DNA of 64,000 nucleotides, taken from positions 248,001-312,000 of the forward strand of contig JALDZX010000011.1 of the NCBI GenBank assembly GCA_022813865.1. The letters are read 5' to 3'. The notes beneath the pieces are model-generated. The model made no database searches and was not told the origin of the DNA. It saw nothing but the letters and a program-made list of their open reading frames with translations. This document shows, in pieces, positions 13,153 to 45,482 of this stretch (within the stretch, counting starts at the first letter, position 1; each line of letters opens with the position of its first letter). The translations under genes were made by a program, and so were the position numbers. Source of the DNA: Xylographa opegraphella. Its lineage: Eukaryota.

Positions 13153-13391
13153 GGTTTCTTGACACAGTCACTATACTAGGGTCCAGAAAATCCGGATTAT
13201 AGACAAATCCATCATGATTGGGAACCGTAAATTGTTGCGACTGTCTAATGTCATTGGCTACCTCGCTACCTAGAAGATTTTGAAAGTCGCGCTTCGCCAA
13301 GACAAATTATAGTTCCTTCGTGTTTCTTCGGTTTCATGAAATATATTGACCACACATTTGTTGACCAATGTGACCAATTAGTCCGATTATC

Positions 13392-15981
13392 ATGGTCTCG
13401 CAAGTTACTGGGCTACAATTCTATCCTCTCCGAGTAGTGACACAGCGTCTGGCCTCCACGCCTACCAATCGTTTACCACACGTTGTTCCTTTTCTATCCA
13501 ATACTATTGCTAATTGTCGTGATGTCTTCAAGCATTCAGAAATCTCCGAGCAGACTAAAGATGGATCTGAAGTTGGCATTGTTGTGCACAAGCTCAAAAC
13601 ACAGTTATCCACATTGCTGCAGGACAAAAGGATCGAGGCAAGGTGGTCAGCTGTGATCTTAATCAAGGCTACCGTAGAAGCCGGCGGCTGGAGTATCCTT
13701 CAAGGCTGCGGAGCGTGGACTCGAGGTCTCTTGGCTATACTCAATGTACGTGGGTCCATGTCCGTATCATTACCATACAATGCTACCTTCTTTCGATGTA
13801 CATTCTTCTGTCACAAGAACATTTCATAATATATGCTGACCATGAGCACAGAAACCTGAACCTTCTACGACTAAGAAGCTGTGTCTTATAACATTGACAA
13901 GAATTTTTGTGCTAACTCAAGAACACCAAAGTCTTGTTAGAGAGATAACCACACCGTCGATACCTCCTTTCGTTACTTCATGCTTGAACTTGATTACCAT
14001 AACTGGGTCCACCAAAGAATCACGAACGTTAGATGTGACCAGCCCGCTACTTGAAACCGTACTACAAGTCTTGATAAAGCTTATCCCAAGCCATCCTTCA
14101 TCATTACGGCCTTTTGTTGCGCAAATACGCTCACTCCTCGCTGTTTCACTGGCACCCGTGCCATCAGACGTCACTTTAGAGGAAGAGTCAAAAGTAGCAA
14201 GAGCTTATCCTCCTGCATCAACAGTATTTCTTAGCCAGCATCTGTTCGCTTTACTACCTCAGTGTGCACCTAAAAACGCTGCGAATGATGAGTACTGTAG
14301 GTATTTAAGAGCTACACTGGAGCAAATTCATAGAACTGCAGACTATGTATTCCGAGCTATCTTTGAGGATCGTGTGTCCTCTACAAAAGTAAGCACAGTT
14401 TCAGCTTCCGTCAGTAATTATGGTGACATCGTGAATGACGAGATCGATGATATTCTGGATCTATCTGGCTGGAGAGGTATTGAAGCAGGAGTTGAAAGGC
14501 TTGAGGGACTCCTTTCGTTGCTGCAAGGTTTCATTGCGGTGGAAAGCTCTTCTGCGTATAGCTTGCCAGTTGGTTCCATCGTATCCACACTGGAAAGACT
14601 GCTTAATATTATATTACCCGCGAAGTTGGACCATCAGAACCCTGCCTCTCAAGCACGGTGGAATCCTGAAGTTGGTCGAGATGAGCGTGAAGGCATGTGG
14701 TTGAAGCTGCCTTCGATACATGCAAAAGCTATCGCTGTTCTTTCAACGTTGATCGACAGGCTAGATATCGTTTCGATTGGGATATTACCAGGGCTCTTAG
14801 AGCAGGTACTATGGGTTTTACGTCATGAGAAGGACCAACAAGACTTGAGAAGCTCTGTCTACAGAATCGTGTCCCAGATTCTTGGTATCATCGGACCCTC
14901 TTTGTCGCAGAGCACGGTCTCTTCATGTTCTCCCCTTATCCGGACACTGTGTCAGGATCTTCTTCCTGAAGAGGCTCGAAGCGAGACTTCTTTGAGCTCC
15001 ACCACCAATGGCGGGAAGATAGTTTCAAGCAACATGAACAATGCAGACTCATACCTGAAGTCTAAAATTGCGACTAGTAAACAACTCCAGGCCCGCTCAG
15101 ATTTCGAAGTAGCGGCTGCCAGCTTGCTTATTTCTATACTTTCTAATATTCCGACGAGTTTTCTATCTGCCCCAATACGAAACCTGATTGATCGTACTGC
15201 TATCTTGACCAATAACCACAGAGCTATGCTTGCAAGTGTGCTCAATCCGGGATCTTTGGCGAAAGGTAAACATACAAGCAGCATTTTGCCATTTTTCGCA
15301 AGAGCTGCTGCCACTTCTCTAGAAGCTGAAGCCATTTTACGACCGAGAATGCCGCTTCTACAACAGCAAAAGGTTGATCGAGATACCATTGACGCAGAAG
15401 ATGAGGAGGACATCGACATGACAACAACCTACAACAATAATCTAGGGATTGAGCGCGAAACAGCTCCGGCAAATGACGAGATAGATAACGAAAAGCAGGT
15501 ACCAAACGCTATCCCTGACTTCTTGAGAACGGCGAGGGAAACACAGGATGCTTCGGTGAAGCAGTCAGAAAGACCAAGTACGACCACTGGAGAAAAGAAG
15601 TCAGCCGACTCCAGGAAGCGCAAAGGAGAGGCTGAGGATTCAGCAAGTATTGGGGAGGTGTCAACACCTGGTCTGCTCAATCCGCTCGCCAAGCGTACGC
15701 GCCTGCAAGACGAGGATATCAATCAAGGGCCCGTGTCCCAAACTTATACAACGCCTTTTGCGCCAGTATATAGTAAGCAAACTGAAAAGACGGATAACGC
15801 GGCTGTCACGCCACTTGTGAAGCCTAATCTTCTTGCCAATGACAATCACGAAGGCGAAGTAGCAAATGACAGCGACGATAGCTTCGAGATTCCCCCTATC
15901 ATCTTGGACTCGGATAGTGATGATAACGAAGAGGAAAGCGAGAATGATGCTGATGTCACAGAGGTTGGTCAACCAAGCTAG
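13392..15981 (+). CDS. RIX1: Pre-rRNA processing protein Rix1 (PELP1-like), one intron near 13746-13851
   Basis: VHKLKTQLSTLLQDK...RWSAVILIKATVEAGGW, LVREITTPSIPPFVTSCL, LEAEAILRPRMP, acidic C-terminus. Confidence 0.88.
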
Positions 15982-20798: not shown

Positions 20799-21642
20799 AT
20801 GTCTTTGGGCAACTACTATAACATCCGCCACGAGGGAGAGAATATGCTCTGCTGTCTGCCAGGAGAAGAGGACTGGAAGCCAGCTGTATGGCATGATAAC
20901 ATCCGAGAAGAGCTGATTGAGAGCGTCAAAGGCAATGTTGGTACTTATGGTATAGTACAATCGAAGACTCTTCTCAGACGAACTTATTGACCGTATTTAA
21001 GAACATCCCCGAACTAAAGGAAAAGAAGTGAACAACATCACTAGCTTCCATCCATATTATCGATACTGGGGCGGAGACGAGGAAAGTCGCCCGAAGATAC
21101 TCTTCCAATTTGATCCCAGTGATGACTGGGGAAGCCTCAACTGCAAGCCCCAGGGTATGATGCACGAGGGAAAGATCGTTCTCGATATGGAGAATCGTCA
21201 AGTTCGTGACTTCTACGAGCTGCCCTTCACCATTTCGACACAAGTCGAGGGATGGTTTGTCGAAGCCCTCATCCGCCTTAACCCACACATCCGTTACACC
21301 GATTTCATATCACGTATGCCCAGCACTTCTGCTCATCTCGCAACGCCGAACGTGTTAAATATGCGGGCCATGCGATGGAGGACGAAAAACTGGTGCCGAA
21401 GCTGGACTAAGAAGGATGGCACCGAAACTATCCGGCGCTACATGTGGGACAAGATGACAGCGGAGCAGCAGGCACAGAACTGCACCAAAGGCATGGGTGT
21501 TGCAACGGCAGTCCAAGTCAAAGAGATCGAAAGCCTTAACAAGGGGAAGCTTAACCGTGGCAAGAGAGGTCATGGCAAGCGTAAACGTGAGGCCGAAGGT
21601 GCTGGTGACACAACCGAGAGTGATGGCATGGGCATAAGCTAG
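20799..21642 (+). CDS. Unknown-family paralogue A (about 263 aa; exons 20799-20949, 21002-21642)
   Basis: Splicing at TAT G|GTATAG...TTAAG|AA gives a continuous ORF with the shared motifs PAVWHDNIREELI, KIVLDMENR, LPFTIST, DFISRMP, NVLNMRAMRWR, NKGK. Confidence 0.8.
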
Positions 21643-23541
21643 CAGTATGACTAAGAGCCGATCGAGTGGTGCCGGTTTCCGGTGATAGAATGATTTTGGA
21701 AATCTTCCAGATGCTTCGGAGGTTCATGCGGGCGTAGATAGCTCTGATGAAGCAAAGTCTTTTGTACGTAGTGTCCTTGGCACAGGTTTGCTTTGGATAT
21801 CTTCAATGACTATCACTAGTCTAGCTTACATCGGCTCCTTGATCAAGTCTTAACAATACCAGATCATAGAAGACGTGTATTCGTGTAAAGTGGACTTCAA
21901 CCCGAAGCTCGTTTGTTATCTGGTAGCTCTTGACTCATGTATTCGTCAGCCGCGTGATGGTTTAAATGACAAACTTTGCTATTGTACAGACAATGTGAAG
22001 CCTGCCACATCGCTCCGGTGTCGGAGGAAGCGGTGTGTCTGCTTAATGGTGACTCAATTCATTGACAGTGTACCCACATATCTGACTCCTGGTTTTCGCT
22101 ATATACTTTCTCTTCTTTCTTGCATCTCGTAAGATCGTCATCTCCTCACTCGGTGTGTCCAGAGATGGTATACAGCTCTATGGTTTCTCTTGTATCATAA
22201 TGCTATTCTTACGGCAGTCCACATCTAGGGATCGAATCGGTATAAGCCTCTCAGTCGGCATCACAGAACAGATATTTGGAACGTTTATAAGAGGCTCTAA
22301 TTGCCCAAAAAATACAGTAACCGCGATCATATATCTTGATCGGTTAGATCGTCGATCGATGATGAGTAAAGGTCCAGGATAGAGCCTTCGTAGTAGATAT
22401 ATGCTGCTGCTTTCTGATTCGCTAGATCTCCCACGCCAGAGCTGCAGTCGTTCAACCTTTATCTTAGATCGTAAAGAAAGGTTCACGAACTCAGGATAGG
22501 ATGTCTCGAATGCTCGTATTTCTTCAGAAGAGAACGTATAGCGGTCAGCAGAATATCAGCCTCGTTAAATTCTGGCTCCGCGAAGTCCTACAAGTAAAAG
22601 CACTGAAGTTGGTGAGTGAAGACCACAGTAGATATGTACGAGGAACCTTACTTACCACACTAGATGCGAACAGTTGCTCTTGCCGATCTGAGCAGCTCTA
22701 GGATACATGCAAGAAGAGTATCGCCAATCGTTTTCATATATTCCTCCAGAGGCAGGCTATCGTTGAGCTTGACCCACCAAACTGGCAAGTGAAATATCAT
22801 GATGTCTTCCATGTGCAATAATGGTTTGTGAGCTATATCGTACCCGGTTCTAGATAGGCCACCAGGCGATGAATCGACATATAGGAATCGGGTACGTATT
22901 GTCTTTTAAGACTTATACCCGAGCTCACAAGGTGATGAGAAGAAGAATACTAGATTCGATCAGTCAGCACTGAGAAATTGCTCTCTAAGCCTGTACTTGT
23001 AATATGCAGCGATGTCGTACCCACCACAAGACCTCAGCCTCATTAGTATTTATATTTTTCTTTCTTTTCCTCCTATTAAAACATTAAATTTTGTAATCGA
23101 CTTCCATGCACGGGTATATATGAGGATGGGCTATATTATATATGATGATTGTCTTTAGAAATCGTAAGTACTCCCTGTACTCCCCTTGCCCTATGTCTAC
23201 CGAGGCTTTTCAGCGTGATCTCGCACTAGCGTGTTAGGGCTAGTAAGTCACGAGATTGAAACGTCAATACCCGAGTGATTGACATCGATTGACACCGATT
23301 GACACTGCACTACGCATAGTGAGCATTCACGTCAACTCGAGTGGTGTCAATTGACTAGCGTTGTTATTCCAGATCACACGCCTGCATTCGTAGTCTTCAC
23401 TTGCTTTCTGCCTCTCTACTTCTTCACCTTCATCCTCCATCATAAAAATCTTCCACCATCCACATCAATTACAACCTCATTTCACTTGTTCATACCTCAA
23501 TAGTAACTGATCTAACTCTTCTCTTGTAGCCAGTTGACAGT

Positions 23542-25168
23542 ATGGTTGGTACTGTTCGACAACGCGCTGTTGGTGATGGAGTGGAATGGTTTGACCCTGA
23601 GCATGAGACATGGCGTATGCTTAATCATTCGAAGACTTTCCAAATATCCAACCTGCTAACACACCAGCCAGACGCTGCCGTGTATCACGACGACATTCGC
23701 GATAGTCTTATCGCTCAAGCTAGTACGCTGGGAGCGTATCGTAATGTCTACCGGTTCCGAATTCCATGATGCTCGAAGACTAATATTAACACAGGATATC
23801 CTCATGGTGTTGGTACCCTACCAAATGACATCACAGCGTACAAGCACGGTACAGTTATACTTGTTATACTTGAGAAGTCCCTATTAGATCAGCTAATATG
23901 ATGTAGAGCAACGAGACTGGGGCGCAGACCGTGCACACTGGCCGGCCATACTGTACCAGTATGAGCCTACAGTGCCAGCTCCTAGAACCCCAAGGGCCGA
24001 TCACTGGAAGACAGAAGCGGGGGAATTCATTCTTGATATAGTCAATGACCCGTTACTGGACTATGCCAAATTGCCACCCACCATTTCGTCCTGCGAGAAA
24101 CCAGCGTTCCTTGAAGCATGGTTTCGCTCAAATTCACGCATTGTCATGAAGGATATCAGGGGACGTATGCCCCAGGATCCGAAGGGTAATTGGGACGGTG
24201 GACTTGACCCCATTCGTAGCGGCACCTTGGGTATGCGTATGACTCGTTTCCGAGAGACACACGGCATGATCTCTTGGAGAAGGAAGAAGGGAAGCGAACA
24301 GATCAAGGCATACATGGATTCAATACTCCCTCAGGCGTGCAAGGACGCCAATTCCATCCGAGGCTTCCGTGTTCTTCATCCGCACGAGAAGTACGCCCTC
24401 CATCTTGGCAATATCGGACAAATGCCAGAGCGTAGCCATGCTGGCACCAAAGATTTGTCTGACGAGAGGAAGGCTGCTGTCAACAAGATCGCTCGCGCTA
24501 AATACGAGTCGTTGAAAGCAGCCTTTGAGGCAAAACAAGCTGCCGGTAACGGTACGGTTGATCCCGACACCTCTTCATCAAGCGAGAGCGATCTTGAAGA
24601 TATCTCGGAGCCAGAACATGATGAGGATAGTAACGCCGAAGATGCGCTACAGAACCTGGATCTTAGCGGAGAGTACGAAGATGATGACTGGTTATCCAGC
24701 CTTGTGCCAGCTAGACAAGCTGATGTCAACGAGAGGGATGAAGAAAGTAGAGCAACTGGGCTAGACTCTACTGGTACTAGTCGTGACGAAGAAAAGCCAG
24801 CCGGTGCTGCGCATGGCTCTGACACTGATGATGAAGATGGCTTCCTAAGTCTGAGGGCCGAGCACCAAGTTCACCAGGTCCTTCTCTTCCAGTTGCTCGT
24901 ACCATCTCGACTTCAATTCGCGACCATCACTGGTCGTCAGCCAGCTCCGACCACTGCTACCGGTTCCTATAATGAGCAATGGGAGGAATTGCAAGTCGAA
25001 CTGGAGGAACACTGGGACGCTTCCGGTCTCCAGGATCAAGTGCCAGAGCTCATTGGCTTAGCACGCCTGACGCGGTCGGAGATCCGATGGAATAATCCGG
25101 CAGAGACAAGGACTTTCCCGCGAGACACAATGATCTTAATCGCGCAACTCCTCGTTGACTTCGACTGA
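23542..25168 (+). CDS. Unknown-family paralogue B (about 485 aa; exons 23542-23614, 23672-23740, 23795-23848, 23907-25168)
   Basis: Canonical introns restore the frame; AAVYHDDIRDSLI, FILDIVNDP, LPPTISS, DIRGRMP, GTLGMRMTRFR; acidic linker and extra C-terminal region; upstream exons possible. Confidence 0.82.
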
Positions 25169-25894
25169 AAGGTTGACCGTATCCGCCCCCTGGTTATTGT
25201 AAGAAGCATTTGCACCACTGTAGATTTGCTCATCGGCTAACCCTCCATATAGGTCCGATATCATCGTGCCATAAGACTGAGTGATGAATATCATAAGAAC
25301 AAGAATCGCTTACGGAGCCCATCAGCTGTCACTGTGACGAAAAGTTTTGAATTCCAAGAGAATTTTGTATAAGGCAAGGGCGTTTTTTCCAGTTTTGATC
25401 ATTAGTCTCTTTCCCCACTTAATACTAGTGTCTTATTGGGAGTCAGCAAAGAGTTACATGTAGTGCGATACTTGTGTGTGTATAAAGACACACTTGTGCC
25501 TGCGGTGATCAGTATGTAGAGTTGGCTTGTACTCAAGAATAGAAATTGGAACAATAGCATTAAATCCTCAGTGAATCCATTTGTTGCCACCACATCTGCC
25601 TCTATACGTGAGGCAAATCCTGTCGCTTGTTTTGTCAGAAAAGACATCCTACAGATGCCGTATGCCATTTTGATCCAGTTCGAATAAGAAGCTCTTGAAC
25701 GCCATAGCCTGAACGTGTATCTTACACAAGAAGCCACTTTACTGAAGCTATTTCAGTGGGTTTGAGCTTCGATTTAGAGCTGCTGTAATAGCATAAACCT
25801 GTATCCTGGGCAGGAATTTCACAACGGACGCAAATGGATGGTGATTAGGCTCGCTTCTGAAGAACCCATCGTGCTCAACCCTGTTGTCACGAAC

Positions 25895-25966
25895 GGCTTT
25901 GTTCCTACAGATGACTTTGTTCCGACAGATGACTTCGTTCCGACAGCTGGCTTTGTCCCGACAGAT
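25895..25966 (+). repeat. 18-bp tandem repeat x4
   Basis: GGCTTTGTTCCTACAGAT GACTTTGTTCCGACAGAT GACTTCGTTCCGACAGCT GGCTTTGTCCCGACAGAT. Confidence 0.9.
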
Positions 25967-28561
25967 AGCATCATCACAACGAAGTGGATGCTTTCGACAA
26001 AACGACTTTGATTTGTCAAGTGGTTACAATCAAACAAGCAACCTCAACACCGGAACCCCATTGAATATTGAAGCTCGCCTTGATGACTAGAAATTGCTTC
26101 GAACATAGTAACAGGTCTTCTATACCAGACAGGCTTCGATTCCGAGGCGCACTTCCTAGGCGGAACAGATTGTGCAGCTAGTCCTAACTTGGAGCTAAGT
26201 CTCGACCTTTCAGGCTTCCGACTGGCTTTTGATTCGCTTGTCGCGGATGCCAAGCTTGCGCGGTTAATTAAACGCGACGAAGCCTAGTTCTGGTAAGTTA
26301 CAGAAATTTAATGTAGGTTGATGATATGAAAGACTCAAGGCCTAATCTTTGAGATGAGCACAGCATAAAACAGTCGTTCCAAGTCTTTTGTAACTATCTT
26401 CGCCCGGATATTGTTTATACTACTGCAGCTCAACTAGACCTTTGTCTCAACTGCGGCAGCAATACCTCTATGAAGATGTGTAGGAACACACATCAATGCT
26501 GAGTTTAGCTCAATAGCTATGCAGTCTCCTGTAGCACTATTATCCCTTTGATTCCGAATTGGTACTGGTTTCGCATCGACATCCTTGATCGACCGAGGCT
26601 CTCCAGAAGCACAGTTTGCAATGTTTGCACTTTCTTGGCACGCTAGCGAACGACCTCGCAACAACTTCGCAGCATTCGGGCAAACAAATATATTAAATTT
26701 ACCAGTGTAGCAGGGATATTGGGCGCTTGCCTGTGTTAGATGTATCGTAGACAGCCACGAGACTACCTGGGAAGAATACCAATGGCGACCGGGTCGGCAA
26801 TCGTTCCGAGGAGGATGAATATCGCTGACTTGACCGAGTAAGGCTAATGCGTGTCACTTCCCGTCTACTGTAGTCACAATGTACTTCGTAGGTGGGTCAT
26901 CCGTAAAATTCACCTACCTATGGAGAAGTCCAGTGAAGTAACCGGCAGGGCTGGCGGCCGGCTAGTGCCGATGAGCCATACATGGCGCCAGACTGTGACA
27001 ATTATAACTTTGCCTCTTATGACGCCACGCCTGACTGGTACCTTTTTTCTCGTCCAATTGTGATAAGCGTTTCAATAACACCATGTTACACTGGGGTACC
27101 AGTTGGCAATCCCTGTTGTCACTAACCGGAACCCCGTCCACATGTCACGGCGTTGCACTACCCGAATTGCAGTCAGGGCATGACAGAGTCTGAGCGCTTC
27201 GCAGCGTTTGATATCCCGGAAGCCCGCGCATGATAAGAACTAGCCTGTAAGATAAATTCTCTGCGCTTTAGTATGCTCCGTGGTCTGTTAGGGCTGCGCC
27301 AAATGGCTTGGAGTGGGATGAAGAACTCCGCACGGCGTGCTCTGAGATTATGGGCGTATAGGCTGCATGTTGAATTAGAAGGATAACCGGATCATAGAAC
27401 CTTCGTTGCTTAACGTCCACATCCGCGAGTGAGTACGAAGTGTGGTTGCTATTCCGCAAAGCTTGTTTCCGACAGAATCATCTTCGCAATTGGCCAAAGA
27501 TGAGACTTGAGCGGCAATGTCATGTTTCTTGGAGATGTTAAGCATACACGAACGGTCGTATCGAGCATGTGACTTGAAGCTTGACACCAGATGAAAGACT
27601 GAGAGATGCTGACTGGCGCCAGTTCTATAACGCTGTCTTTCTCTCCGTCAAATTTTCTTCCGTTTCGTTTGGAGACATTAAACGCCGATTCGCACCGAGC
27701 GATTAGCCGCCGATCTATATATGAGGCTTGAGGCCTAACAAACGAGCAGCTTGTATGTTTAGTCGGTGTCGGTTTGTTGGATTCGAGTGACCGGACTGAC
27801 TAGTATAAGATGATGTATGAGGAATATAGCTGCCTCTCGTCTCGAGATAGGGTGAGGAATCATGTAGGGCAGTCAGCACATTCTATATAATATACTTTGT
27901 ATATCCAGCTTCAATAATCGACGGAATCTGCCGGCGCTGTGAGGACCCCGGCTCGAGTCATGGCTGCCCGGCTTCTTTCTTATGTTATGGTCTTGATGCT
28001 TGGGTAGCTGGCAGTCCCATGCCCGTTTGGGGTGGTATGATCGCTAGTAATACCCTGAATGGGAATTGCGTTGCTGGCTGCTCGCTTCTCAGATTTTCGA
28101 AGGTCCGTAACACGTCGACCTCGTAGTAGGCGCGTCATTTTCATTTTCACGTTCATCACACCAGTCACGTCTTTGAAAACGTGTTGTATCCGCTGTAGCC
28201 ACCGCCTAGGCAACGCTCCTGTAGTCTCGCTAGAATTCAAGCTCCACGTTCAGTCCCAAACCTCACTTCTTCAACCTCGCTATCTCTTCTGACACTGTCA
28301 ACTCCTTCTTCAAACTCTGCTTTCAAAACAGAAAAGACTTCTCACATACCAAGTCCTACAGAGAGCTTACGCGTGGTAAGACTAGAGCTCTCTGTCAACC
28401 TCTCCTCCATCCATCACATTTCATCTGTTGTTGTCTGGACCTCAACCTCCAACCTCCTCTTGAGTCATCCTTCTACATAATAACATCAACTAATTGAAAG
28501 CTCTGCATCAGTTATAGAACCTTATTCGTCTGATAACATCCCAAGCTACAAGAAAGCAAAG

Positions 28562-30864
28562 ATGAGTATGTTCATTCTTCTATGAAGCACTTTGAAAGCA
28601 TCTTTGACTGAAACGAGTAGGAGGGAGACCAAAGCAGAACGGAAATACTGGAAGCAACAACGGTAGTATGATTATGATAACCTTAAGTTCTCATACTCGC
28701 TGACATAGAGACAGTGCCAACAGGTCTCGAGCCATCGGCGAGCACGCCCACCACAATGGCTACGCCTGTGGTATCCAAACGACAAGCAAAGCGTGCTACC
28801 ATATTGTCGACGACAGGCGATATTGCCAGTAATGACAGACCCAAGGGACTAGTTCGAGTCCGTGAGGGTATTCTACAGCACTTCTTGACGAGTTCCGAGG
28901 AATGGGTTCCTGCGATGTACCATAATGACATCCGGGAAGAGCTGATTGAAGAGAGTGAAGCTTTCGGTGATTATGGTAATCATCTAGCAGATCATATATT
29001 GCTGAGACATACTAACCGCTGCAGATCATCCAAGGGCGAGAGGTTTAGGCGCAGACGACGTGACGTCCTTCCTTCCCGCACAGAAGACCTGGTAAGTAAC
29101 AACTCTCTTGTGAGGCTGAATGAATGTGTGCACTTCATCTTGCTATGTGACACCGATGTCACCCGCCCATACATAAACGTGTATCGTACTCATCAGTTTC
29201 CGTAAATGATATCCATTTTAACTGTACACACCGCTGTTGTTAATGCACGACGCTGACCAATTTTTAGGGGCATCGAACGTCAATATTGGCCAGATGTACT
29301 ATTCCAAATTATCCCCGACAAGAGCACTCACCTACCGGAAGACAATGTGAAGCCATGGTATAGGAATGGCATGATTCTCCTTGATCAAGACAATCGTCCG
29401 CTCAATGATTATGATAGCATTCCTGCCACATTGTCCACAGAGATCGAGGGACAATACATGGAAGCGATGTCTCGGCTAGACTCTCGTATCAAGCATGCCG
29501 ACTTCCGGGCTCGCATGCCTAGTACGATGGTTGTGAAAGCTGGCAATCCGGCTGTACCATTGTTCACGCTCAATACAATCTCTATGAGAATGAGCCGATT
29601 CCGTGATCAGGCAGCATTGGTATCGAGAGAGAAACGTGCCGGAACCCAGAGCATTGAAGATAACTTGAGACAACTGCTTCCAGAACAATGCTTCGAAGAG
29701 AACTCCACACGGAGCTTTGGCAGGCTTTTGACTCGGGAAGAGGTAGCAATTGTCAAAAGTGTCAACAAAGGCAAATTTGCATACCGTGTTCGTAAGGGAA
29801 AAGCTGCTGTCGGTGTTTCAGGTCCTACAGCACCTAAACGCAAGAGGACAAGAGTCACGATTGAAAATGACGACGACGAGCAGAATCCGGATATTCATAG
29901 CACAACTCCCGAGCAGAATTCCGAGATTCACAGCACATCTCCTGGGCTTCATCGAGCAAAACGAACCCGCCATGCAGAGGCGCAAGAACCAGATTGGTCA
30001 TCCGTTATAGATCCCACACTGGAAACGTTGACTCCATGGGTACCAAACAACCAGAACGACTATAGGCAAGAACAAGCCCCAGCTCACCCTTGCATTCCTT
30101 CGAATGACGATTACACCTTGGAGTCCGAAAATGCATATTCGACGAATCCCAGCAACGAATTTGCACTTTCTATCTCTGACGACAACCCCCACGATGTGTC
30201 AGCTGTAGCTTCAGCAGAATCAACCCAAGGGGTTTCGCAGCTTGAAATGCTTCCATATAGACCTGACTTGATTGCAGGCGGGTATGGCAATTCCCTCGCG
30301 GACACATTGGTGACGAACCAATGGGCTGCACAGAATCAGCAAGTATATACTGGTAGACTTACCCATGGTTTCCACAGACAGCCGCACGGTAACGAAGCAG
30401 CGCCGACACGTTCAATGTCCTACCATGAGCCCCAAAGTGCTGTCAATGCTTATGTTCCTTACAATATAGACTTTGTGACCAACACACATACCTCAACACC
30501 ATTGGCAAACAATAGTCAGAATACGGAAACTCGGGACGATGGACGGAATGGTAACTGGAGCTTGGGAGATCAACCCATATTCACCAACCGGAATCGAGCT
30601 CAGCATACATTGCCAGCCTTCAATGAGACAGTATATAGTCGTGCAAATGGCCAACATCAGCAGAGGAATAGCCTGGACCCAGCTGACCATGCCGTTCAGA
30701 GCACCAACCATTTCGAGCTCGGCAGGGGTGACGCGAATGGGGTCATTCCTAATCAAGAATCACAAGAGAATGAAGAAGAACCCCCTTTCTCATTCACAGA
30801 TTATCTCAACGATTCAGATTCTCAATACGACGAGCAAGAATTCGTTCTGATTGGCAACTCGTAG
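28562..30864 (+). CDS. Unknown-family paralogue C (about 658 aa; exons 28562-28565, 28621-28662, 28709-28975, 29025-29091, 29268-30864)
   Basis: All introns GT-AG and frame-preserving; PAMYHNDIREELI, MILLDQDNRP, IPATLST, DFRARMP, NTISMRMSRFR, NKGKF, KRKR; long polar tail. Confidence 0.82.
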
Positions 30865-33800
30865 CGCTATGTCGGCTGCGTTGGTCCTTAGAATCCGTCG
30901 ACGATACGGCTCGCCTGCCTTGGGATGAAGGAAACCACTGGTATCGCTGAAAGAGTAGGCTGACTAGACCAGGAGCGGTGCTTACTTTCAAGCTTAACGA
31001 TGTCATGATAACGAAAAAGTAGCTTTGATTTGACTGTTGGAGTTTTGGGGGGAACGGAGACTGAGCATTTGCGATTAGCTTTCTCGTGGATTAAGATGAA
31101 CCAGGCGAAGATATCCACTCTAACATGAGCACCGAGAGGTGAGTAGGAAGCATGGTTCTTCTGATGTGTATCTTCTGGCTTAGAGCACGGTGATGATTTC
31201 TGGTTAGTACTGTTTCTGGTAGTGTATAGAAGCAATTTGGCGGGTGAAGATGTTTGCGACCGGGCATATAGCACGATAGCATAGCTCCTCTTTCGAGCAT
31301 CCAGAAATACACGATCTCTTTCCTCCAACGTGGTTGTTTTTCAATGATGAAATGCAACCTTGACTTTGTCACTTGAGGACATGATATACCTTACAATAGC
31401 TTTGCACCGCAGTATAAAGAAAGTCCTTGAGCTACGTGTCGTAGAAGTATCCTAGAGTTCTTAGGCACGCTGGAATACAAGTCCATGTATCAGCTGACGC
31501 AGGAATCAAATATACCTTGAAAAGGGGGTTATGGAATCGGGTTCAGCACGTGACGGTAGGGACTTCTCCACAGTGCGGCGTGATGCGGCCTCCAGAAGGC
31601 AGTAGGGTCACATGAACCAGAAGCCCAGCTGTACGTTGTTTGGCCGAGTGATTGATCACGTCCAAGCAAACAGCCACGCAGGCGAACGATAAGAAGGGAT
31701 TTTTTAAATAAATATAGCTTCTTGCCGACTGCATGACAAGTCTCTGCCTGGATCCTGCACTGACCCTCACGGACATTGAGTGCAAGAAACCTGAGAGATT
31801 GTGGCTGTGGATGGGTTCTGGTTCCATCGACGCTGTCAATGCATCGCATTTGGACGACAGCGAGTAGGCGTGAACGAGAGGTAATCTCTGAGACTGAATA
31901 AGCCATTCACAGTAAAGATCGCGAGCAAGCTATATTGAGGGTTTCTCGGAAAAAATTACTCGTCTCATAGGCAATAACAAGGGAACTGAAAGGCTCGGCT
32001 CAGTCGTCCATTCGCGAATCCGGAATCTGCTAATGTTGAAGAAACCACTTTCTACCACGGCAATGGCATGACGAGATCATTGAAGCGATTGAAGAAGTCG
32101 ACAATGCTAGACTTACTGTCTGCTTTCGTGGCCGAAGTATCGCTTCTAAGTTTACTCCCATCATGAACCCCAGAAACTCGTGCCAACTCAGGTACTCATA
32201 TTAGATATATGATTGTCTTGGGTCCAAGTACCTTAACGGTCTTTCAATATCTAGAAAACAACATCGCTGTGGCACTCATCAAGAGATTGTGAGATCTCTT
32301 CGAAGCAAGAGTATTGAGTTTAATGGTGGTGTCTTGTTGAACAGCATATGCATCGAATTTATCGAATGGTACGTGGTTCAACGTGGAGTATCTGATGAGA
32401 GCTCGAGATACTCATTTATGCTTAGCAAGTTTTTGATGTCCATCAGCGTAATAGCTAGACGAAGCATGGAGAACCAGCTACTCACGTCCTCGACATAGTT
32501 TTCACTGGCTGGTCTCGACCATCATGCTCCAGTCTGAAAGCACTCGTATAACGAAATATCAAGAAACGCACTTGTTTTGAGTTTGAGACAGAGAACGAGA
32601 CTCATTCAAACACTTAGCAGGCGTCAATGCCTCGTGAGAATCCAGAGACTTCGTTTCTTGACCATTTTTCAGACTGTTTGACTTGGTGTCACCAGCACAT
32701 TCTGTAGCTTCTAACACAGTTTCCTTGATATTCCAGTATAGCTTCGTTAGCGAAAGGGTCTTTCTCAACACACAGAACGGCTAAACATCGCTTATACTCA
32801 GGAATCGAACGTGACTCAAACACGCTTCTGGCGCGTAGCCAACGCCTTGCTCGCTTGATCTCCTATTGTGAATCTGATATTAGTCTAGTCGTATTTTTCA
32901 CTCGTTTAGCTCCGTTATGAAGTAGATACGCAAGGCTCACTTTCATCTGACCTCATTCATTGTCAAAGCCATCCTTGGCAGTGCATAGCCTTTATAGCAT
33001 CAAAACATCATCAATACCTGCTTCGACTGATGACGTCTATGCTATCTTAAAGCTCCAAAAAAGGGTCTTTTGACGTGTGGATGTCAACAGCTGAGGATAT
33101 TCCATCTGACGAATGATGGAGGGTTTGAGCAATGGTATCAGGCAAACCCACGCTTGCTGCACTGAGCCAGTACAAATTTCCTCGAGAGCTTGCCGGATAT
33201 TCGGCACATCGTTGTTGTTACTCAATTTGAGTAGCACTGGATTCCTGGCTAGGAGGAGCTGAGTTTTGTTAATGACAACCTCCATCCTGAACCAGAGCCC
33301 ATTGATGATACTCGTCGAGATAGTGAAGAGAAAATATCTTAATTTGACGGCCAAACTTTCTTCTTTTCGCTTATGTTCCAGTATAAGCTACCTTTAGCCC
33401 TATGGCAAGCTGAAGTTGAAGTTTTGTACCTAAAATTCAATTCAAGAACTTGGTGCAATTGCGGAGATTAATAAGAGTTTGTAGGCGACATTGTGTAGAC
33501 AGTAATTCGACTCCCAGAAAAGTATCATTGTGGCCTTGCTTCGTGCTCAATATCATTGTTTCGATATATATGAGCCTGCAATCTTGTATTTAGGGGTAAA
33601 GACTGCGTATTCTCCAATATTGACACGTAGCAGCGCTCCTGGGAACGTGTTTACCATCTCCAACGCTTGCTTATGGCTGTTTAGTGATAATTCTGCCGAG
33701 GTGATTTCCACGTTCGAACAGCTTGTTACCGCTCAGTATCTTGATCACTCAACACGTGTTGCTCATAGTTGCGCAGACAAGCCCTCCGCTTATCAGAGTA

Positions 33801-34173
33801 GTTGAGTTTCCGCCTATACCTCCAGCTCCTTATTCATACCTGAGCTTCATCTATTCCATCATCCTCTTCAGAACAAGATACAGACTACTCAACCGGCATC
33901 TGCTATCTCATCAGAAGATAGCAATTATCTTGCTAAACCGATAGAGAGTTGTAGTGCGTTCCATCATTGAGCGTCTGGTCTTGAATAGCCCAACCACGAC
34001 GCGTTCATCTTCAGAGCCTATTCGAACGTGCCATTGTACACTCTCACCATCGACAACTTCCTCTTTCGTATAATCTCTACGTCGAACCGCCACTTCTTTC
34101 ATACAGGTACCATTTCTGACACGACTTCTCTCTTCTTCCAATTTCAAGCTGAGACAACCATAGTTTGGACAAG

Positions 34174-36731
34174 ATGAGGCAGATACGGAAACGGAAACGT
34201 CATATTGAAGCTGATGAGCTAGATCTCGATGATTATAACTCGCACAATCCAGAGCTATCATCAAAGCAAGGCAAGTGATCTGTCGTCAAGAGATACCACA
34301 TTATCAGGCTCACCAATGTACAGCACCAAAGAGAGCGAGGCTCGATATTTACAACAGTACTCGAGGTACTAAATATCATATCCAAAAACAGAGAATGCTC
34401 AAACCTGGCTAATTGATTATAGTTGCCGCCTATGATGGTCAACTCGAGAACAAACCAAGCAGTGCTGCCATAGATGGAGTTGATAACAACATTCCAAATT
34501 TGGAAGCATCAAATGACCTCTCCCGTGCCGCCTTGTCCAAGCGAGCAATGAAACGAGCCGCCATTGGACATAACGTTGCAAGCAACGACAAGCCGAAGGG
34601 TCTGACACGTACCGCTCTGGACGGTAGCATAGAACATTTCTTCGAGAGGGAAAATAAATGGGGTATGATCGATGTGTACCACTCGTTGATTTTTAGCTAA
34701 TCTTCTAAAGTGCCTGCTGTAACACATGAGGAAATCCGCGAAGAGCTCATCAAAGAATATGACCAAAAGGGAACATACGGTAAGAGTGCTCAAGTAACTT
34801 GGTGAAAGGAGTGCCTAAGCGAAGCAGATCACGGCAGATCCAGGGGCCTGAAGCCCACCGAGGTAACTTGCTTTTGTGCCTCGCAGAAGTCATGGTTGGA
34901 TTGCTCCGGAGGGGCAATATATGAAGCTACTTTCAAGCACTAATAACTGTGTAGAGGCAATGATCCTGCTACTTGGCCGCAGGTGCTTCGACAGATACAA
35001 CCAACGCTAAGGTATGTTAAAGGCGAAGTGAAACTTTGGTATCGTCATGGGAAGATTGTCCTCGATCCCGACGAAAGGCCTATACGTCTGCTTGAGATAC
35101 CTGCTGTGTGCTCGTCGAAAATGGAAGACTGGTTGATGTCGGCCATCTACTTGTCAGACCCCAAAGTTGAGATACTTGATATCCGTGTACGAATGCCAAG
35201 AACCGTAACCGTACTTGAGAAAGGCAATCAAGTTGAGAGGCCACTCTATCTACCCAATGCGTTGTCGATGCGGATGACTCGATTCCGAACAAAGTATGGT
35301 CTGATGCCCCGGGAGAAGCGCGAAGGCAGCACGCCCAAGGAAGAAAAGTTGAAGTCCTTACTTGGAGCAGAGCGAGTCAAGAATAACGACGTAGGAGATT
35401 TTAAGCCTTTGACTAGACAGGAAATTACTGAGGTCGAAGCCGTGAACAAAGGACGCTTTGGTCATCGCGCCCGGCCGGAGAATAAATTTGGAAAGAGGAA
35501 GCAGAATCCGACTGACAATGAAACGGTTCAAGTGAAAAAAACTAGAAGTTCAAAATCCAAGCTTTCCACAAGTGAGGTGCTTAACTCGAACGGCAGTACA
35601 TCTGGGAAAGCGTTCGTGGATGCAGAGCCTCATTTTCGTCGAGGCCTCAGCCAGGGATTTAAACTTTGGGCAATCGGAGACCAACCTTTCGTGCCAGGAA
35701 TTCATCGTCACGACCCGGAAGCAACATATCCTCCCTACCAACCCGAAGGCCTTAAGGCACTAGGGTCACGTTGGGAACATCGCGGACCAGGCACAGGTCA
35801 GAATGAGTCCTTGAATACTCGTGATAATACCTTGGCGGGTCCGTCTCGATTAAACAAGGCGCACCAGAAAACTGGCTTTGGTCAAGAGAACGGCCTTCTG
35901 GGCTTCGATGAGATACCAAGGGATGCCTGGAATCGTCGATTTTGGTTTGCGGATACATACAGCGGATTTGAGGATTTCCATGGCTTTGAAGGCCGTGAGA
36001 ACAACAACGACGACGTTGTTCCGAGTAACGGAGTAGGCTCCCGCCACTATCCAGAATACTGGCTGAGCAACCAGTCTCCACCAAAAGAGAGTAGTTGTGG
36101 CGATAAATATGACGGGGATTCAGGCCTCGTTGGCCCGAAAGTTTTCGATTTTCCCGATTCTCCAGGTAAAGGGTCGGTACGTTTTGATCCTCTGGCAGAC
36201 GCAGTTGGCGACTTTAGCAGGACTCAGGATATCAAGGGCCATGCGATTAACGGTATCATAAAGTCGCATACTTCACACGGCTTCGACCACACCCAAAAAC
36301 GAGGCTACCGGGGGCCTCAGTTCCCAGAACACCGATATGGCGATGTTGCTGCGCCTCGTAGCATTCTGCACCTAGCAAGTAACGGTACAGTTGAACCGAA
36401 CGACGATTCCCAAGGTCTACACAGCTTTGAAAAGAGTGCGGTCGAGCATGTTTCGGAGATAAAAGACCGATCAGCAGGAGATAGCGGTACTCCGGAGCTC
36501 ACTATTTTTGGAAGTGCATACGCTGCTGCCTGCAGCACTCAAGAGAAGGACAACTTCGATAGAGCATGGGCACGCGGAGAAGACCCTTCTAACACTTTGC
36601 TTAGTGACTATGACGTGCGCAACTCAGGTCTCGGCGATGACGAGGCTGGCAGTATGGGCAGTATGGACAGTATGGAAGAGCTCCTCAGCACAGCCAAATG
36701 GGATCCCGAGGCTTGGTCTGGGTACTTGTGA
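34174..36731 (+). CDS. Unknown-family paralogue D (exons 34174-34270, 34324-34365, 34423-34662, 34711-34779, 34828-34894, 34955-36731); in-frame TGA at the last junction, so possibly a pseudogene or alternatively spliced
   Basis: PAVTHEEIREELI, KIVLDPDERP, IPAVCSS, DIRVRMP, NALSMRMTRFR, NKGRF; exon sizes 42 and 67 nt match C and 69 nt matches B; first intron GC-AG. Confidence 0.72.
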
Positions 36732-37351: not shown

Positions 37352-38971
37352 ATGACTGCCATTATAACGGTGTCAATGAACACAGATGAAGTCCCTAATC
37401 CTGCGCCGACATCCATAGAGTCCCTCATCCTGCCCACGGCTTCTCAGAATTTTTCCCGCACCCTAGCTTCTCTCAAGCAAAGTAAATTCTCCATAAAGAA
37501 CCGCTTAACGTCTATCCACGAAGACTCGCAATTTGTTCAGCATGTCTCAGTATCTCAGAATCTCCCTCTTATTGCAAATGAACGGTGTGGAAGCTGGTAC
37601 ATCCCACCAGAGCAGAAATTGGGCAGCGCTTATTTCAAGAGCACGGACGGGCATCAGGGCCAATGGAAGTTCAGTCTGAGGAGGTTGAATATCCAGATTC
37701 TGGATATCATTGAGAAGTTTGACGGGTTCGATCACTCGATCGCTCCGAGAGGAAATGGTTGGCTAATAGTTTCAAGGTAGTTGTATCATTGTTGACTCCA
37801 CAAGATCAGGCAAGAGCATGCCAGATGCTCTATCGAAGACTGTCCCGGTATGGTGTGCGGTCATGAACCGGCTGCTGTTCCCCGAGAATACCGAGAGCCA
37901 TGTGCTTCGCACCCCTCCTTCGGTCGTTGGAAGATCCGAGCACAGCCAGATCGAAGCACGCCTTGATGGCTTTTTGGAGAACTTGAAGGTACATTACTAT
38001 AAGGATATTGAGTAAGCGGACGCTTATCAGATTGATTAGGGCTTGAAGCTCGACGTCGGCGGTCTTCGAGCGAAGTTGCAGAAACCGCTTCGTGTTGGAT
38101 GGATCACGCAAGCCTCACCACAAGCTTTGCCGTCCTCGGATCCCCTTTGTGATCCAACTTACCATCCAGTACTATGCTGCACTGCCTCAAGACATGAAGC
38201 GAGTAGCGGTACATGGACCGACGGCTATATTCAAGGCGCTGGAGATGACAGCGAAGGCTGGTCGACAGGGCTTACTCCAACTGCTTTCTGGCAGAACTTG
38301 TCACCTTTGCTGTCGGCATCCCAGGAAGAGGGCGATATCCTTGAGTTACTCACTATATCCAATGCCAAAGAATCAATGCTTTCATCCGTATCACAACCTA
38401 CTGCTATTTATCCCGGCAACAGCAAGTGGCCATTGTTCATCGGAAGACTCGAAGTGCTACAATCTTCTGCCTCTATTGATATGGACGGTATCATTACATG
38501 CGACCAAGATATGATCCAGGTCTTACCAGTAGCTACAAATATTGGAGGTAGACCCCCGCTCTTGCATCTGGGAAGCCATACAGGAAAGCTTGGGAGCCGA
38601 ACACTGCGCGATCAGCTGCCTCGACTCAAGCCATTCATTAAGCAGATAGCTTCGCAAACGCAGCATCCTCGTCTACTATTCGCGTGCAGCACTGGTCGCG
38701 ATCTATCTGTTGGCGTGGCCTTGACAGTGCTATGCATCTACTTCAACGACGACGGTCGGTCAACAACGCTTTTGAGCATTTGAACCCTCTCGTAGTTGGC
38801 TGACACTAACCTTGCCTAGGGATGTTCGTCAGCGCTACCAGTCCGGAGCCAATTACCAAGGATATTGTTCGACGACGTCTTAGCTGGATCGTAGCCTCCA
38901 AGCATGATGCAAACCCAGCACGCGCAACATTGCAGTCTGTCAATGCATTCTTGATGGACAGACCAAAATGA
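37352..38971 (+). CDS. RIT1: Initiator tRNA 2'-O-ribosyl phosphate transferase (3 introns)
   Basis: SIKNRLTSI, PLIANERCGSWY, SAYFKSTDGH, FSLRRLN, DSTRSGKSMPDALSKTVPVWCAVMNR, YIQGAGDDSEGW, C-terminal CSTGRDLSVGV and NPARATLQSVNAFL. Confidence 0.93.
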
Positions 38972-39581: not shown

Positions 39582-40267
39582 ATTGAAGTCTTGATAAATC
39601 TCTCTCACTTCCAAAAATCTCTAGATCACTTTTCAATAAGGACGAAGGGAGACTTCAAAGGACGTTTTGGGTATTTTCCGTAACAGGCTGACTAGACAAT
39701 GAGTGACGCGAACAAAGGAGTCTTCTCTCTCTTCAAAAGAAATGAGTTGTTCCACATCACACGCCCAGCATTTAATGCATCCCTAATGCGTCCTGGACCC
39801 TTGCCAAGGATCTGCATCCCACGGCCCGAGCTCCATCGTAAAAAGCTTGATGAGCTTGGCTGCAATAAGCTTAGCACTAGTCTCCGACGCTTCACATTCT
39901 GCGGATCAGATTGCAGGGAGGTCTGTGATTGGCTGTGCGTGCAGAACCGGTGGTACGAGGAGCTGGTGCTCAGCTGAGTGTGTCGTGGCGAGGTGCTGGG
40001 CGGGTGTTTCATTGGTAGCAGGAATGGGTACCGGCATGGAAGGCAGATGGGCCCACGGTGGTGATACGAGGAGAATGTTACTCAGGTTTCGCGTCTTGAT
40101 ACCACGATTCAGCGATCCAGCGACCGGCGAGATCATCGCAAAGCCATCCGCCTACTTTATAACAATTCAAACAGACTTTTCCCCTCCAGCCCGATAGCTG
40201 CGTGATGTAAGTACAGGAAACCTCTCCACGTGTACAATGAATCCCTACCCGCCACCCCCACCACCCC

Positions 40268-41618
40268 CTACAAATCCACCTTCGTCGCCACCATCCCTTC
40301 GGCGAAAAACCCCGTCACCCATAACCACGCCTGCTTCCGCCCCCCATCACCCGGCTCAATCCCCACCAGCAGCGCCGTACTCGCAGTCCTGATGACGTCC
40401 CCATCGTCCTGGAACAACAGCCTCCGCTCACGGCCCTCGGCGAGAAACCACACGCTGACAGGGTCGCGCGCATGCGCATCCGCCTCGCGCGGGCCGAGAG
40501 TGTGTGCGAGCGGCAGCCCGGCGAGGACGTAGCCGCTAGCATCGTCGGCGGCACCGGGGGCGGAGGCGTACGGGTCGGTGTAGTAGGAGGGGTTGTCGAT
40601 GGTGCAGGGCAGTTGGATGGAGGACTGGATGCGGAGGGCGTGGCCCGCCGGGTCGGCCGGGTCGGTAGCGGCGTGGAGGAGCACGCCCGGCGCGGCGCGC
40701 ACGATTAGGATGTCGGAGGCGTTGCGGCCGTGGCCGAGGCCGTTGGGGTTGTTGATGCCGGGCAGAGCGATGGTGGCGGTGACGCCGGCTGAGGGGGAGG
40801 CGGACAGGGTGAGGCTGTCGACGGATACGTGCACGATTTCGGACCAGGGCGCGAGGTGCTCGCCGGCGATGGTCTCGATGGCGCGCAGGGTGCCTTCGCG
40901 GTAGAAGTGGTCGTTGGTGATGTAGAAGGTCGAGGGCCCGGTGGCGTAGATGTCGTTCGGGGTGCGGATGAGAGGGTCGCGCACGGAGCGGAGGTGAGTA
41001 GCAGTGAGCGTGCCGATCGTGTGGCGGAAAATTTCGATTTGGGAGCGGGCTTTCGGGGTCGAGGACGCGGGGGTGGGGGCGTCGTAGTAGGCGGGGTTCG
41101 GGAGGTGGTTGATGGCGAAGATGTAGACCGTGTCTGGGGCGGAGGGCGCGGAGTAGATGTCGATGCCGTGGGTGACGAACGGGCCGGAGAAACGCTCGAG
41201 GGTGAGGCGCGAGGACGTGAACGTCTGCGGGGCTTGTTATCAACATGGGAGGAAAGGTTCTCAACATCGACCAGCGCGAACCTACCTTTGGGTCAATCAC
41301 GAACAGCCCGCCTTGACTGTCAGCAGCGGCTTTTGGGTCTCGGAAATTCCCTTCCGGCGACGCCGGGAACCATGAGAACCGTTCGGCCGAACGGCCTTGG
41401 CAAGCTGCGAAAAGCAGACCGGATGGCAGATGGTAGTGCAGGTCTTCGCATTGGACCGTGTTCGGGATGACCCTCAAGTCTTCACCATGGATATTCCGAA
41501 TCGACGCTTGAGAGCGCGTGTAGCCGAGAACTTCTGCGCGGAGCTTGATGGGGTTGTACAGCAGCGCTGCAAGGGCAGCAAGCGTGACGAAGAACGCAGG
41601 CAGTGTGATCGGAGCCAT
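40268..41618 (-). CDS. Paraoxonase/arylesterase-like six-bladed beta-propeller, one intron near 41227-41286
   Basis: N-terminal anchor; CEDLHYH, THGIDI, IRTPNDI, FYITNDH, NPNGL, IDNPS motifs. Confidence 0.88.
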
Positions 41619-42118
41619 TGTGTTGACAGCGCGCAGGATCACGAAAAGTGCCGATAGTGTGGTTGCACGAGAAGATGAAAGGCGCAGATTTTTTAGCGGT
41701 ATCTCTACATGTTGCTTTATAGGTACGAATCCTGAGTGAGGTAGGTAATGGTACTAAGGGTTTTTATGAATGCCCTAATTAGTAAGTGCTTGTGCAGGAT
41801 GGTTTGTGTGAGGTGAGGACAAGAAATGACTTGGGGCGGGAATTAAAATTAGTGCCGGAGGTTAAAGCGAGAATTCATAAGGTATAGGTTTGTATGCAAA
41901 CCTGTCGATTTTGAGATATACGACGTTCACTGTCAGCCAAAGGCTCCCGACGAGAAAGGCACTACGGATCGAATGATGATGAATACAGCTATGAAGGCTG
42001 TATTCCGTGACCATGGAACGAGTGACTGAAATCTGTGGAATATAGAGTACAAGTATACTGACACAAACAATGTATGTTGGTATCCAATTGTGAAGACTAA
42101 TTACAGACAGCAGCACCG

Positions 42119-43831: not shown

Positions 43832-45482
43832 GGTGGGCGGTGGATTGAGTACCGCAGCGAGAAGGTACTCGACGGAGTCGGCGTTGACAAAGGTTGGTGC
43901 GAGGTCGTGCTGATGGAAGTTGAGGAGCGGGGCCGGGTGAGAGCTTTGTAGTCGCAGCACAGGATATCTGGGAAGCGCAGATCTATCGCCGAAGTTCTCC
44001 CCGACCGATAAGGCATTTTGCGAGATAGCCGATGGCGGAGATATGTTTCTAGGCCCCTCATTCGAGAAATCCGCACACGACTGTTTCCCGCTGGCGTTCG
44101 TGCACTGGCCCGTCCACGAGGTAACTGGATCCGACGAAGCGCTGAGCGACGTCGGCTCAGCGAATGAGAAGCGGGCGACTTATCATCGTGTAGGCGAGAC
44201 CCTACGCAATAGCGCTCCGCGTCGTACCTAATTGCTTCCCACCAGCCCCATGCCCGGCCTGATCCGCCCGAACATGGAGCGGATCTGCGCGGTAGCGTGG
44301 GTGAAGCTGACGGACATGACTTCCACCGTCCAGATCTCATGGTCCAGATGTGACATCCATCTCGATATCGAACAAGAATGCTGCTGGGACGGACAGATTA
44401 CTCCACAAGCATGGGAAGAAACGCCGAGCAGAACTCTCGAATGGGAGCCCACGATCAGCACGCGCCATACTTCACGCAGCATCGTCTGCTCTGCCACGTA
44501 GAAGTAGAAAAACGTAAAATTCAAGACCCTCGATATGTTGTTCGAGTTCGAGGGCCAATTGGTGTCTGGGTGCGAATTCCCTTGGGTCGTGGTAGTTGCG
44601 CCATCTGCATGTTGCCGCTGGGTGCCGGCTCATGGAGAGGACGGTGGGGATGCGGGTACATATTGATGTAGCTACCCAATTAGCCAAGGTAGGTACTTAC
44701 TAGGTACGGAAGTACTCTGTACTAAAAAACTTACAACACAGTCTGGTTATTCTCTATCCCTATTCTTGATGAATGCTGATCTATTGGTCCGTGGACGAAT
44801 CTTCTCGCCTAGTACCGCTAGTCTTCAACAGGACTAGAGTCGTCAGTATTCACACTGTCGAATCCCATAAGGGGCACAAACATGTTGGAAGAGGCTGACA
44901 TGGGGCTCATCCATCCTTCGAGGTATTTCCATAGCAGGAGCTACGCCACCAACTCGACGGAGATTCCTCGTTCCCGACGGCTCTCGCTCACAATTGCTTG
45001 CTCCGGCAACATGAGGGGTTCCCTTCGTAGTTCTTTGATGCGGGATCAGTGTTAGAACGGGACAGCCGTAGTCGGCCGAATACTCACCTTCGCAATACTG
45101 CTGCCACGGCCGGAACCAGGCGTCTCCGTCCCATCCCAGTGCTGATGCTGCGTTCGATTGTGTTTCAGATGAATCAATCCTACCATCTTTTACTACTAAT
45201 AAAACATGCGGTCGTTGGCTTCGGCATTCTCGCAAGGCTTACGTGAGGATGTAAGAGGCAGGGCAATCCTGAGCATTCTAAGCATGCTCATCCGGACCAC
45301 CTCCATGGTCTGAAACAGCTCTGATCATGGGAGGCGCATAAAGGTGAAGGCGTGTCCACAGATTTCTTTTCCCTCTTCAACTGCTTCATATTTCACTATA
45401 CTATTCTATACTACATCTATTAATTCGATTGACTTGAACCTCCTTTCAGCTTTTACGGCACAAGCACCTGCATCTTGACATC

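Follow-up and report, generated by a model that had tools for sequence, protein, structure and literature searches.

A tandem array of four related genes, designated A to D, is described on the forward strand of a 64,000-nucleotide stretch of the Xylographa opegraphella genome (NCBI GenBank assembly GCA_022813865.1, contig JALDZX010000011.1, positions 248,001 to 312,000), referred to below as the window. The genes belong to a real, old, and apparently undescribed two-domain protein family kept in a conserved tandem array; no description of the family was found in the literature searched. Judged from their sequences, the proteins are probably nuclear regulators. An even chance is given to the reading that they bind DNA through a new domain built around a Myb-like trio of helices, with C and D as activator-like members, A as a tailless member, and B as a two-domain member. 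A folded domain and a nuclear signal, followed by a disordered tail with an acidic-aromatic end, make up the usual architecture of transcriptional activators.

Gene Models and the Shared Domain

All four genes lie on the plus strand, where an earlier note made from the DNA sequence had placed them, and each gives an open frame after splicing at GT–AG introns with branch sites (Table 1). That note had held that the genes emerge only after manual splicing. This is not the case, as about three-quarters of the domain lies within one exon of each gene and the public X. opegraphella annotation already lists them as hypothetical proteins. The models of genes A and C are identical to MMC26_002289 and MMC26_002291, and MMC26_002292 corresponds to gene D without the exon at 34828–34888. 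Longer starts for gene C, from 28562, are also open. The exon joints of gene B are the same in its X. pallens ortholog. A phase-1 intron follows the Tyr of the GxY motif in four of four genes (at 20950, 23741, 28976, and 34780), as had been noticed before, and a further phase-1 intron, after the first Trp, is common to B and D. The spacers measure 1.9, 3.4, and 3.3 kb, in agreement with the earlier 2–3.4 kb. A hidden Markov model (HMM) of the four domains and their relatives was run against all six frames of the window; A to D were recovered with no further convincing copy, and the next-best match (independent E-value of 0.009) lies inside RPF1.

The shared N-terminal domain is 235–265 residues long, and the pairwise identities among A to D are 26–43% over 229–244 columns. 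The sharing first described is borne out, and the length of about 220 residues given for it is too short, with residues 8–270 of C modeled at high confidence. The AlphaFold2 model of C was built with 125 sequences. Its predicted local distance difference test score (pLDDT) is at least 90 for 245 residues, all within the first 270, is about 97 over residues 21–260, and falls below 50 through most of the tail, which is predicted to be disordered. The predicted order of elements is a three-strand N-terminal sheet and a helix, long ordered loops, a hairpin, three helices at 157–210, and three more at 222–262.

The first helix trio contains the residues listed in Table 1, for which the conservation is 0.82–1.00 across 187–188 sequences. 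R178 is invariant in 188 sequences (100%), and D174, M179, R206, R208, P148, N241, G264, and the N-terminal H56 and R60 are 94–99% conserved. Individual values are 94% for H56, 97% for R60, 90% for D85, and 95% for both D135 and D174. The third helix of the segment is rich in Arg, in support of the basic helical motif recognized at the outset. Over the whole domain, 20 columns are at least 60% Lys or Arg, compared with 9 columns that are at least 60% Asp or Glu.

Neither the shared domain nor the second domain described below matched Pfam, solved structures, viral structures, or Atlas clusters, and the initial view that no known domain could be assigned holds. The TAF1C C-terminal domain (PF20643) passed its cutoff in one of 54 proteins and scored below it in two more, over about 43 residues and in none of A to D; two of these three proteins are sisters in the tree.

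Basic Patches and Acidic-Aromatic C-Termini

Behind the domain, A, C, and D carry a KRKR or KRK patch and B carries none. These patches had been seen before, and across the family they are far above chance: a basic patch lies within 80 residues after the domain in 125 of the 169 proteins with long enough tails, compared with 13.0 after shuffling (kinship being ignored in this count). In the interval 160–240 residues further on, the patch was present in 5 of 114. The patch is predicted to be a nuclear import signal. A strongly hydrophobic stretch of 19 residues was found in none of 189 members, so that neither secretion nor membrane anchoring is indicated.

The C-termini of C and D are acidic and aromatic, and the FSFxDY motif of C is kept in four orthologs. 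Two rules were applied to tails of at least 150 residues after removal of 13 near-duplicates. The relaxed rule calls for a 39-residue tile within the last 64 residues with a charge of −8 or lower and at least six W, F, Y, and L residues. The strict rule calls for a 39-residue tile with a net charge of −9 or lower, at least seven such residues, and a diagonal term, as formulated in equation 1 of PMC10550315. The end of C passes the relaxed rule and fails both the strict rule and a version restricted to W, F, and L.

Of 88 members that lack the second domain, 37 pass the relaxed rule, compared with 6.1 after shuffling; those with the second domain show no excess (7 of 57 vs 9.2). When the former were collapsed into 55 unrelated tail groups, 21 passed, compared with 4.2 after shuffling and 6 at mid-tail positions. 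Under the strict rule the corresponding values are 6 of 55, 0.4, and 1. As a control, one of 13 other open reading frames (ORFs) in the window passes. The acidic-aromatic excess is real at every threshold, and the strength of the C and D candidates is modest.

The Second Domain

The tails had been described as unrelated: minimal in A, long and polar in C and D, and acidic with an extra region in B. The extra region of B is a second conserved domain rather than an unrelated tail, which recurs in 63 of 189 domain-bearing proteins across several clades, the A and C/D clades not being among them. It is modeled as helical with a small hairpin (pLDDT of 90.9; predicted template modeling score, pTM, of 0.84), and a structure search gave no fold match. 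The second domain and the acidic-aromatic C-termini together favor transcriptional regulation over the other options raised in the earlier note.

The second domain also occurs alone. At the metagenome locus L001, a stand-alone copy was recovered with a profile from which that copy had been excluded (probability of 93.5%, E-value of 2e-7). The ORF that carries it (12400–13581) lies between two domain genes and RIT1 and adds about 220 residues of no known family. A Villophora model (P0012) has two main domains and one second domain and probably represents fused neighbors.

Distribution of the Family and Age of the Array

A profile of the four domains matched 1,433 representatives of 50% identity clusters at an E-value of 0.001 or lower (818 at 1e-10). 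The range of the family was judged from the best 150 of the 1,433 matches, a sample biased to the best matches, so that a wider range is possible. Of 30 clusters looked up, 13 have a named member, and all of these are lichen fungi. With further named proteins, members come from 13 genera of lichen-forming Lecanoromycetes: Xylographa, Trapelia, Lambiella, Ptychographa, Lignoscripta, Varicellaria, Villophora, Usnochroma, Rusavskia, Gyalolechia, Xanthoria, Brigantiaea, and Dirinaria. The suggestion that the family is lineage-restricted holds, in the sense of lichen fungi, as far as these names go and is tempered by the size of the family.

Gene A has four orthologs of 252–265 residues, in which the short length is kept and the domain identity ranges from 164/225 to 192/233; in four species the tailless protein measures 263–265 residues. 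Gene B and its X. pallens ortholog are identical at 218/251 residues of the domain, 76/117 of the linker, and 86/103 of the second domain. In five of five C orthologs the domain is more conserved than the tail. Across species the A, B, and C orthologs are one-to-one, with 73–87% identity in the domain.

These relationships bear on the possibility that the array is a nonself-recognition, genome-defense, or drive cassette, with a toxic domain that is neutralized by the second domain. Tandem, very divergent copies and a second domain that occurs either fused or alone would suit such a cassette, and an expansion of HET families is reported for Cladonia grayi (PMC6652019). The one-to-one orthology does not suit it, nor do the GC content and dinucleotide indices of the array locus, which are ordinary. 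No HET, NACHT/NB-ARC, NLR, HeLo, repeat, or toxin domain was found in the 52, 42, 54, and 52 family proteins scanned. Nonself recognition and genome defense, both proposed earlier, gained no support, and we regard a cassette of this kind as distinctly unlikely.

A tree of 30 rows places A, B, and C/D in different starred clades, all of which also contain sequences from outside the lineage of the window. The B clade includes Lambiella, Ptychographa, and Lignoscripta, and the C/D clade includes Trapelia. A single clade of nine Xylographa copies was rejected (p-AU, the p-value of the approximately unbiased test, of 7e-38). Family copies with neighboring locus tags, on contigs of equal length, are found in X. 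pallens (005201/005202), Trapelia coarctata (001196/001198), and Gyalolechia gomerana (004342/004345), and the two Gyalolechia neighbors are also in different subfamilies. In an X. bjoerkii model, A and B are fused, and four further protein pairs may be adjacent, as the contigs of each pair have the same length.

The metagenome scan provided two loci from 167 candidates. In L001, two diverged domain genes are followed by the ORF with the second domain only and then by RIT1, all on the same strand. The RIT1 of L001 is only 64% identical to that of the window over 107 residues, and L001 is therefore not a close relative. Synteny with RIT1 was observed at two loci, the window and L001, and the flank upstream of the window array is not shared by L001. 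Ancient divergence and retention as an array, as first proposed, are supported by the separate old clades and by the neighboring copies in Trapelia, Gyalolechia, and L001. From the sequences it would appear that the copies diverged before the lichen genera and were kept as distinct ortholog lines.

Two structural features of the L001 genes were also recorded. The last three helices are missing from both domain genes (8350–9040 and 10500–11300). In the first gene the domain is uninterrupted by introns, and the second has a phase-1 intron after the first Trp.

An origin from a transposon or virus, with proteins now domesticated or decaying, is highly improbable. The family is large and diverges quickly, one splice form of gene D may contain a stop, and Y1_Tnp gave weak scores for A and one ortholog (E-values of 0.03–0.2). 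Those scores, 12–15 bits against a cutoff of 23, recur in one of 42 members. The introns are shared, the position beside RIT1 is fixed, and neither terminal repeats nor long repeats at the ends were found. There was also no PHROG match in 42 members, no viral structure match, and no relative among 33 pattern candidates from prokaryote genomes.

Proposed Function

For the reading as nuclear DNA-binding regulators, the following mechanism is proposed. The basic patch would import the protein into the nucleus, where the domain would bind DNA or chromatin through the Arg-rich three-helix segment (R178, R203, R206, and R208, then W216 and R219), which may be laid out like a Myb or helix-turn-helix (HTH) element embedded within a larger, new fold. 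Recruitment of coactivators by the acidic-aromatic ends would make C and D activators of transcription. Tailless A could compete for the same sites without activating, and the second domain of B, also a gene of its own elsewhere, may serve as a regulatory or partner-binding module. Joint action of A to D is suggested by their long-kept neighborhood. The regulator role put forward in the earlier note agrees with the patches resembling nuclear localization signals, the disordered tails, and the Arg-rich helix, with DNA binding and nuclear location remaining predictions.

Several observations weigh against this mechanism. Neither C nor D passes the strict activation-domain rule, looser thresholds were used at first, and the ends of C and D had already been noticed when the test was designed. 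The strict rule was itself derived from human proteins (PMC10550315). The four upstream regions share only three 7-mers (1.4 by shuffling) and no 8-mer. In A, B, and C the domain is neutral in net charge, with K+R against D+E counts of 34/31, 35/34, and 37/38, and several of the conserved Arg residues may form buried salt bridges. Searches by Pfam, by PDB sequence, and by fold gave no match to Myb, HTH, or any other DNA-binding family. The fold search with the entire 627-residue model of C gave no HTH match to residues 157–210, although the segment was not searched alone and a small HTH could be missed. PF00249, PF22980, and PF14420 were absent among the Pfam matches of 42 members (E-value of 1 or lower), 54 proteins (0.05), and 52 proteins (0.01). 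They were likewise absent for five excised helix segments at an E-value of 10 or lower, under HMMER filters that hide weak matches.

The neutral charge of three of the four domains and the missing DNA-binding fold are also what would be seen if the proteins were nuclear cofactors or adaptors without DNA binding of their own, in which the domain docks on a protein or chromatin complex and the acidic tails act there, as in VP16 and CITED2. The same basic-patch and acidic-end results would apply. The most invariant positions of the domain are Arg residues in or next to a single helix, with Trp and Arg coming after them, a make-up that is usual for nucleic-acid-binding surfaces, and this counts against cofactors, which we consider rather unlikely.

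The conserved residues H56, R60, Y73, D85, and D135 could equally form an active site. Together with D174 and R178 they would define a nuclear enzyme family of new fold, acting for example on a nucleic acid or a phosphate ester. H56, R60, D85, D135, D174, and R178 are conserved at 90–100%, and a domain of 250 residues with long ordered loops is of enzyme size. No enzyme fold or family was matched, activation-like ends are unexpected on an enzyme, and the L001 members are without the last three helices. Nor do His, Arg, and Tyr come in an order that would fit the tyrosine-recombinase motif. An enzyme is judged unlikely, slightly more so than a cofactor.

DNA-binding regulation can be extended to a larger proposal, offered tentatively and at a clearly lower probability than the regulator role itself. 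The shared domain would represent a new eukaryotic class of sequence-specific DNA-binding fold, and the RIT1-linked array would be a regulatory cassette of long standing in lichen-forming fungi, made up of activators, a competitor without a tail, and a modulator carrying the second domain. It would have originated early in the Lecanoromycetes and would steer a lichen-specific program such as thallus development or symbiosis. Loss of many known transcription factors is reported for lichen-forming fungi, which are also reported to share almost no lichen-specific core genes by ordinary orthology clustering (PMC9232553). Genes upregulated in the thallus are largely unannotated (bioRxiv 10.1101/2024.08.16.608140). 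A large family that diverges quickly and is built like regulators would escape both ordinary orthology clustering and Pfam-based counts. If the domain binds DNA, a new domain class and named candidates for the control of lichen development are obtained; even if the function differs, two confidently modeled domains with no structural match merit structure solution.

Gene D, Flanks, and Other Features of the Locus

The last intron of gene D contains a flaw. Use of the donor homologous to that of C leads to an in-frame TGA at a conserved Trp (34889–34957) that is 81% conserved in the family. A weaker donor 6 nucleotides upstream keeps the frame open with the loss of two residues, and the frame is otherwise open only through other nonhomologous sites. 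The TGA may reflect damage, an alternative donor, or RNA editing, and gene D may be either unusually spliced or damaged at one splice site. A literature search found no paper on RNA editing in Lecanoromycetes. The last exon of D is open for 594 codons and has conserved relatives, with 97 of 115 domain residues identical in protein P0040.

The earlier note had placed the array between an MpaB-like gene and RIT1. The RIT1 assignment is confirmed by Pfam. The MpaB-like label of the upstream flank is putative, and the exon pieces of that gene gave no Pfam or PDB match.

Table 1. Positions of the Array Genes and Associated Features in the Window
Feature	Position	Strand	Description
Gene A	20799–21642	+	263 aa; one intron, 20950–21001; domain ~20820–21570; KRKR at 21577; almost tailless
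Gene B	23542–25168	+	485 aa; introns 23615–23671, 23741–23794, 23849–23906; domain ~23551–24475; acidic linker; second domain
Second conserved domain of B	24824–25165	+	~100 aa; L-x-P-T-R...TG-x-x-P...SY-x-x-Q-W-x-x-LQ...W...P-x-L
Gene C	28756–30864	+	627 aa; introns 28976–29024, 29092–29267; domain 28777–29790; KRKR at 29836; long polar tail
Three-helix segment of C domain	29449–29610	+	helices 157–166, 172–177, 197–210; D174, R178, M179, R203, R206, R208; candidate DNA-reading element
Acidic-aromatic C-terminus of C	30697–30861	+	residues 573–627; FSFxDY; activation-domain-like
Gene D	34174 or 34548 to 36731 (start uncertain)	+	~650–760 aa; domain ~34530–35480; KRK at 35493; long polar tail
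Introns of gene D	34663–34710, 34780–34827, uncertain one ending 34954	+	
Acidic-aromatic C-terminus of D	36567–36728	+	activation-domain-like; passes relaxed rules, fails strict rule
RIT1 (initiator tRNA phosphoribosyl transferase)	37355–38971	+	downstream flank, not a family member; PF17184 and PF04179

Additional features were observed around the array. In the A–B spacer, a possible decayed spliced gene lies on the minus strand (23026–22180) with a strong GTAAGT donor at 22655; its frames of 81 and 125 residues are protein-like, with codon scores near those of RIT1, and contain stops and a frameshift, with no Pfam match. The B–C spacer has an 18-bp tandem repeat of 3.9 copies (25897–25966) that is open in frames on both strands. 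An ORF of 280 residues at 45438–46280 begins with a signal-like segment and contains ERDL/KR units in repeats and a block rich in His and Lys; it resembles a fungal repeat precursor peptide and has no Pfam match. Several stretches within 40000–57000 have a GC content of 0.54–0.65, compared with 0.44–0.51 around the array.

Comparison with Known Systems

The closest likeness of the predicted helix trio would be to fungal single-repeat Myb/SANT-like and Clr5-type HTH proteins, which have three helices in a short-short-long arrangement, the third with basic residues of the A-x-x-x-R-x-x-R-F-R type, and a basic patch followed by a disordered tail. A match in register to the helix patterns of Myb_DNA-bind_8 (PF22980) and Clr5 (PF14420) is putative and was confirmed by no search. 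Unlike those proteins, the family has no Pfam match in any scanned member, and its helices are set inside a 250-residue fold that also contains hairpins, ordered loops, and three additional helices. Helices 2 and 3 are also joined by a longer loop, of up to about 20 residues, and a second, family-specific domain is present.

The velvet, WOPR, and Ndt80 lineage-specific fungal transcription factors, with DNA-binding folds of their own, share with the family a large conserved N-terminal domain, a nuclear signal (predicted here), and a divergent low-complexity tail. They also comprise several old paralogs per genome, with both activating and nonactivating members, a division that is predicted here.

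With acidic activation domains of the VP16 H1 and CITED2 type (PMC10550315), the family shares C-terminal clusters of acidic and W/F/Y/L residues, which are above shuffled values in members without the second domain. It differs in that the strict rule is passed by only 6 of 55 tail groups, with C and D passing looser versions only. By sequence the family falls outside the Myb/Clr5, HET/NLR, and transposase (Y1, DDE, and tyrosine recombinase) families, yet it appears to behave like a set of lineage-specific transcription factors.

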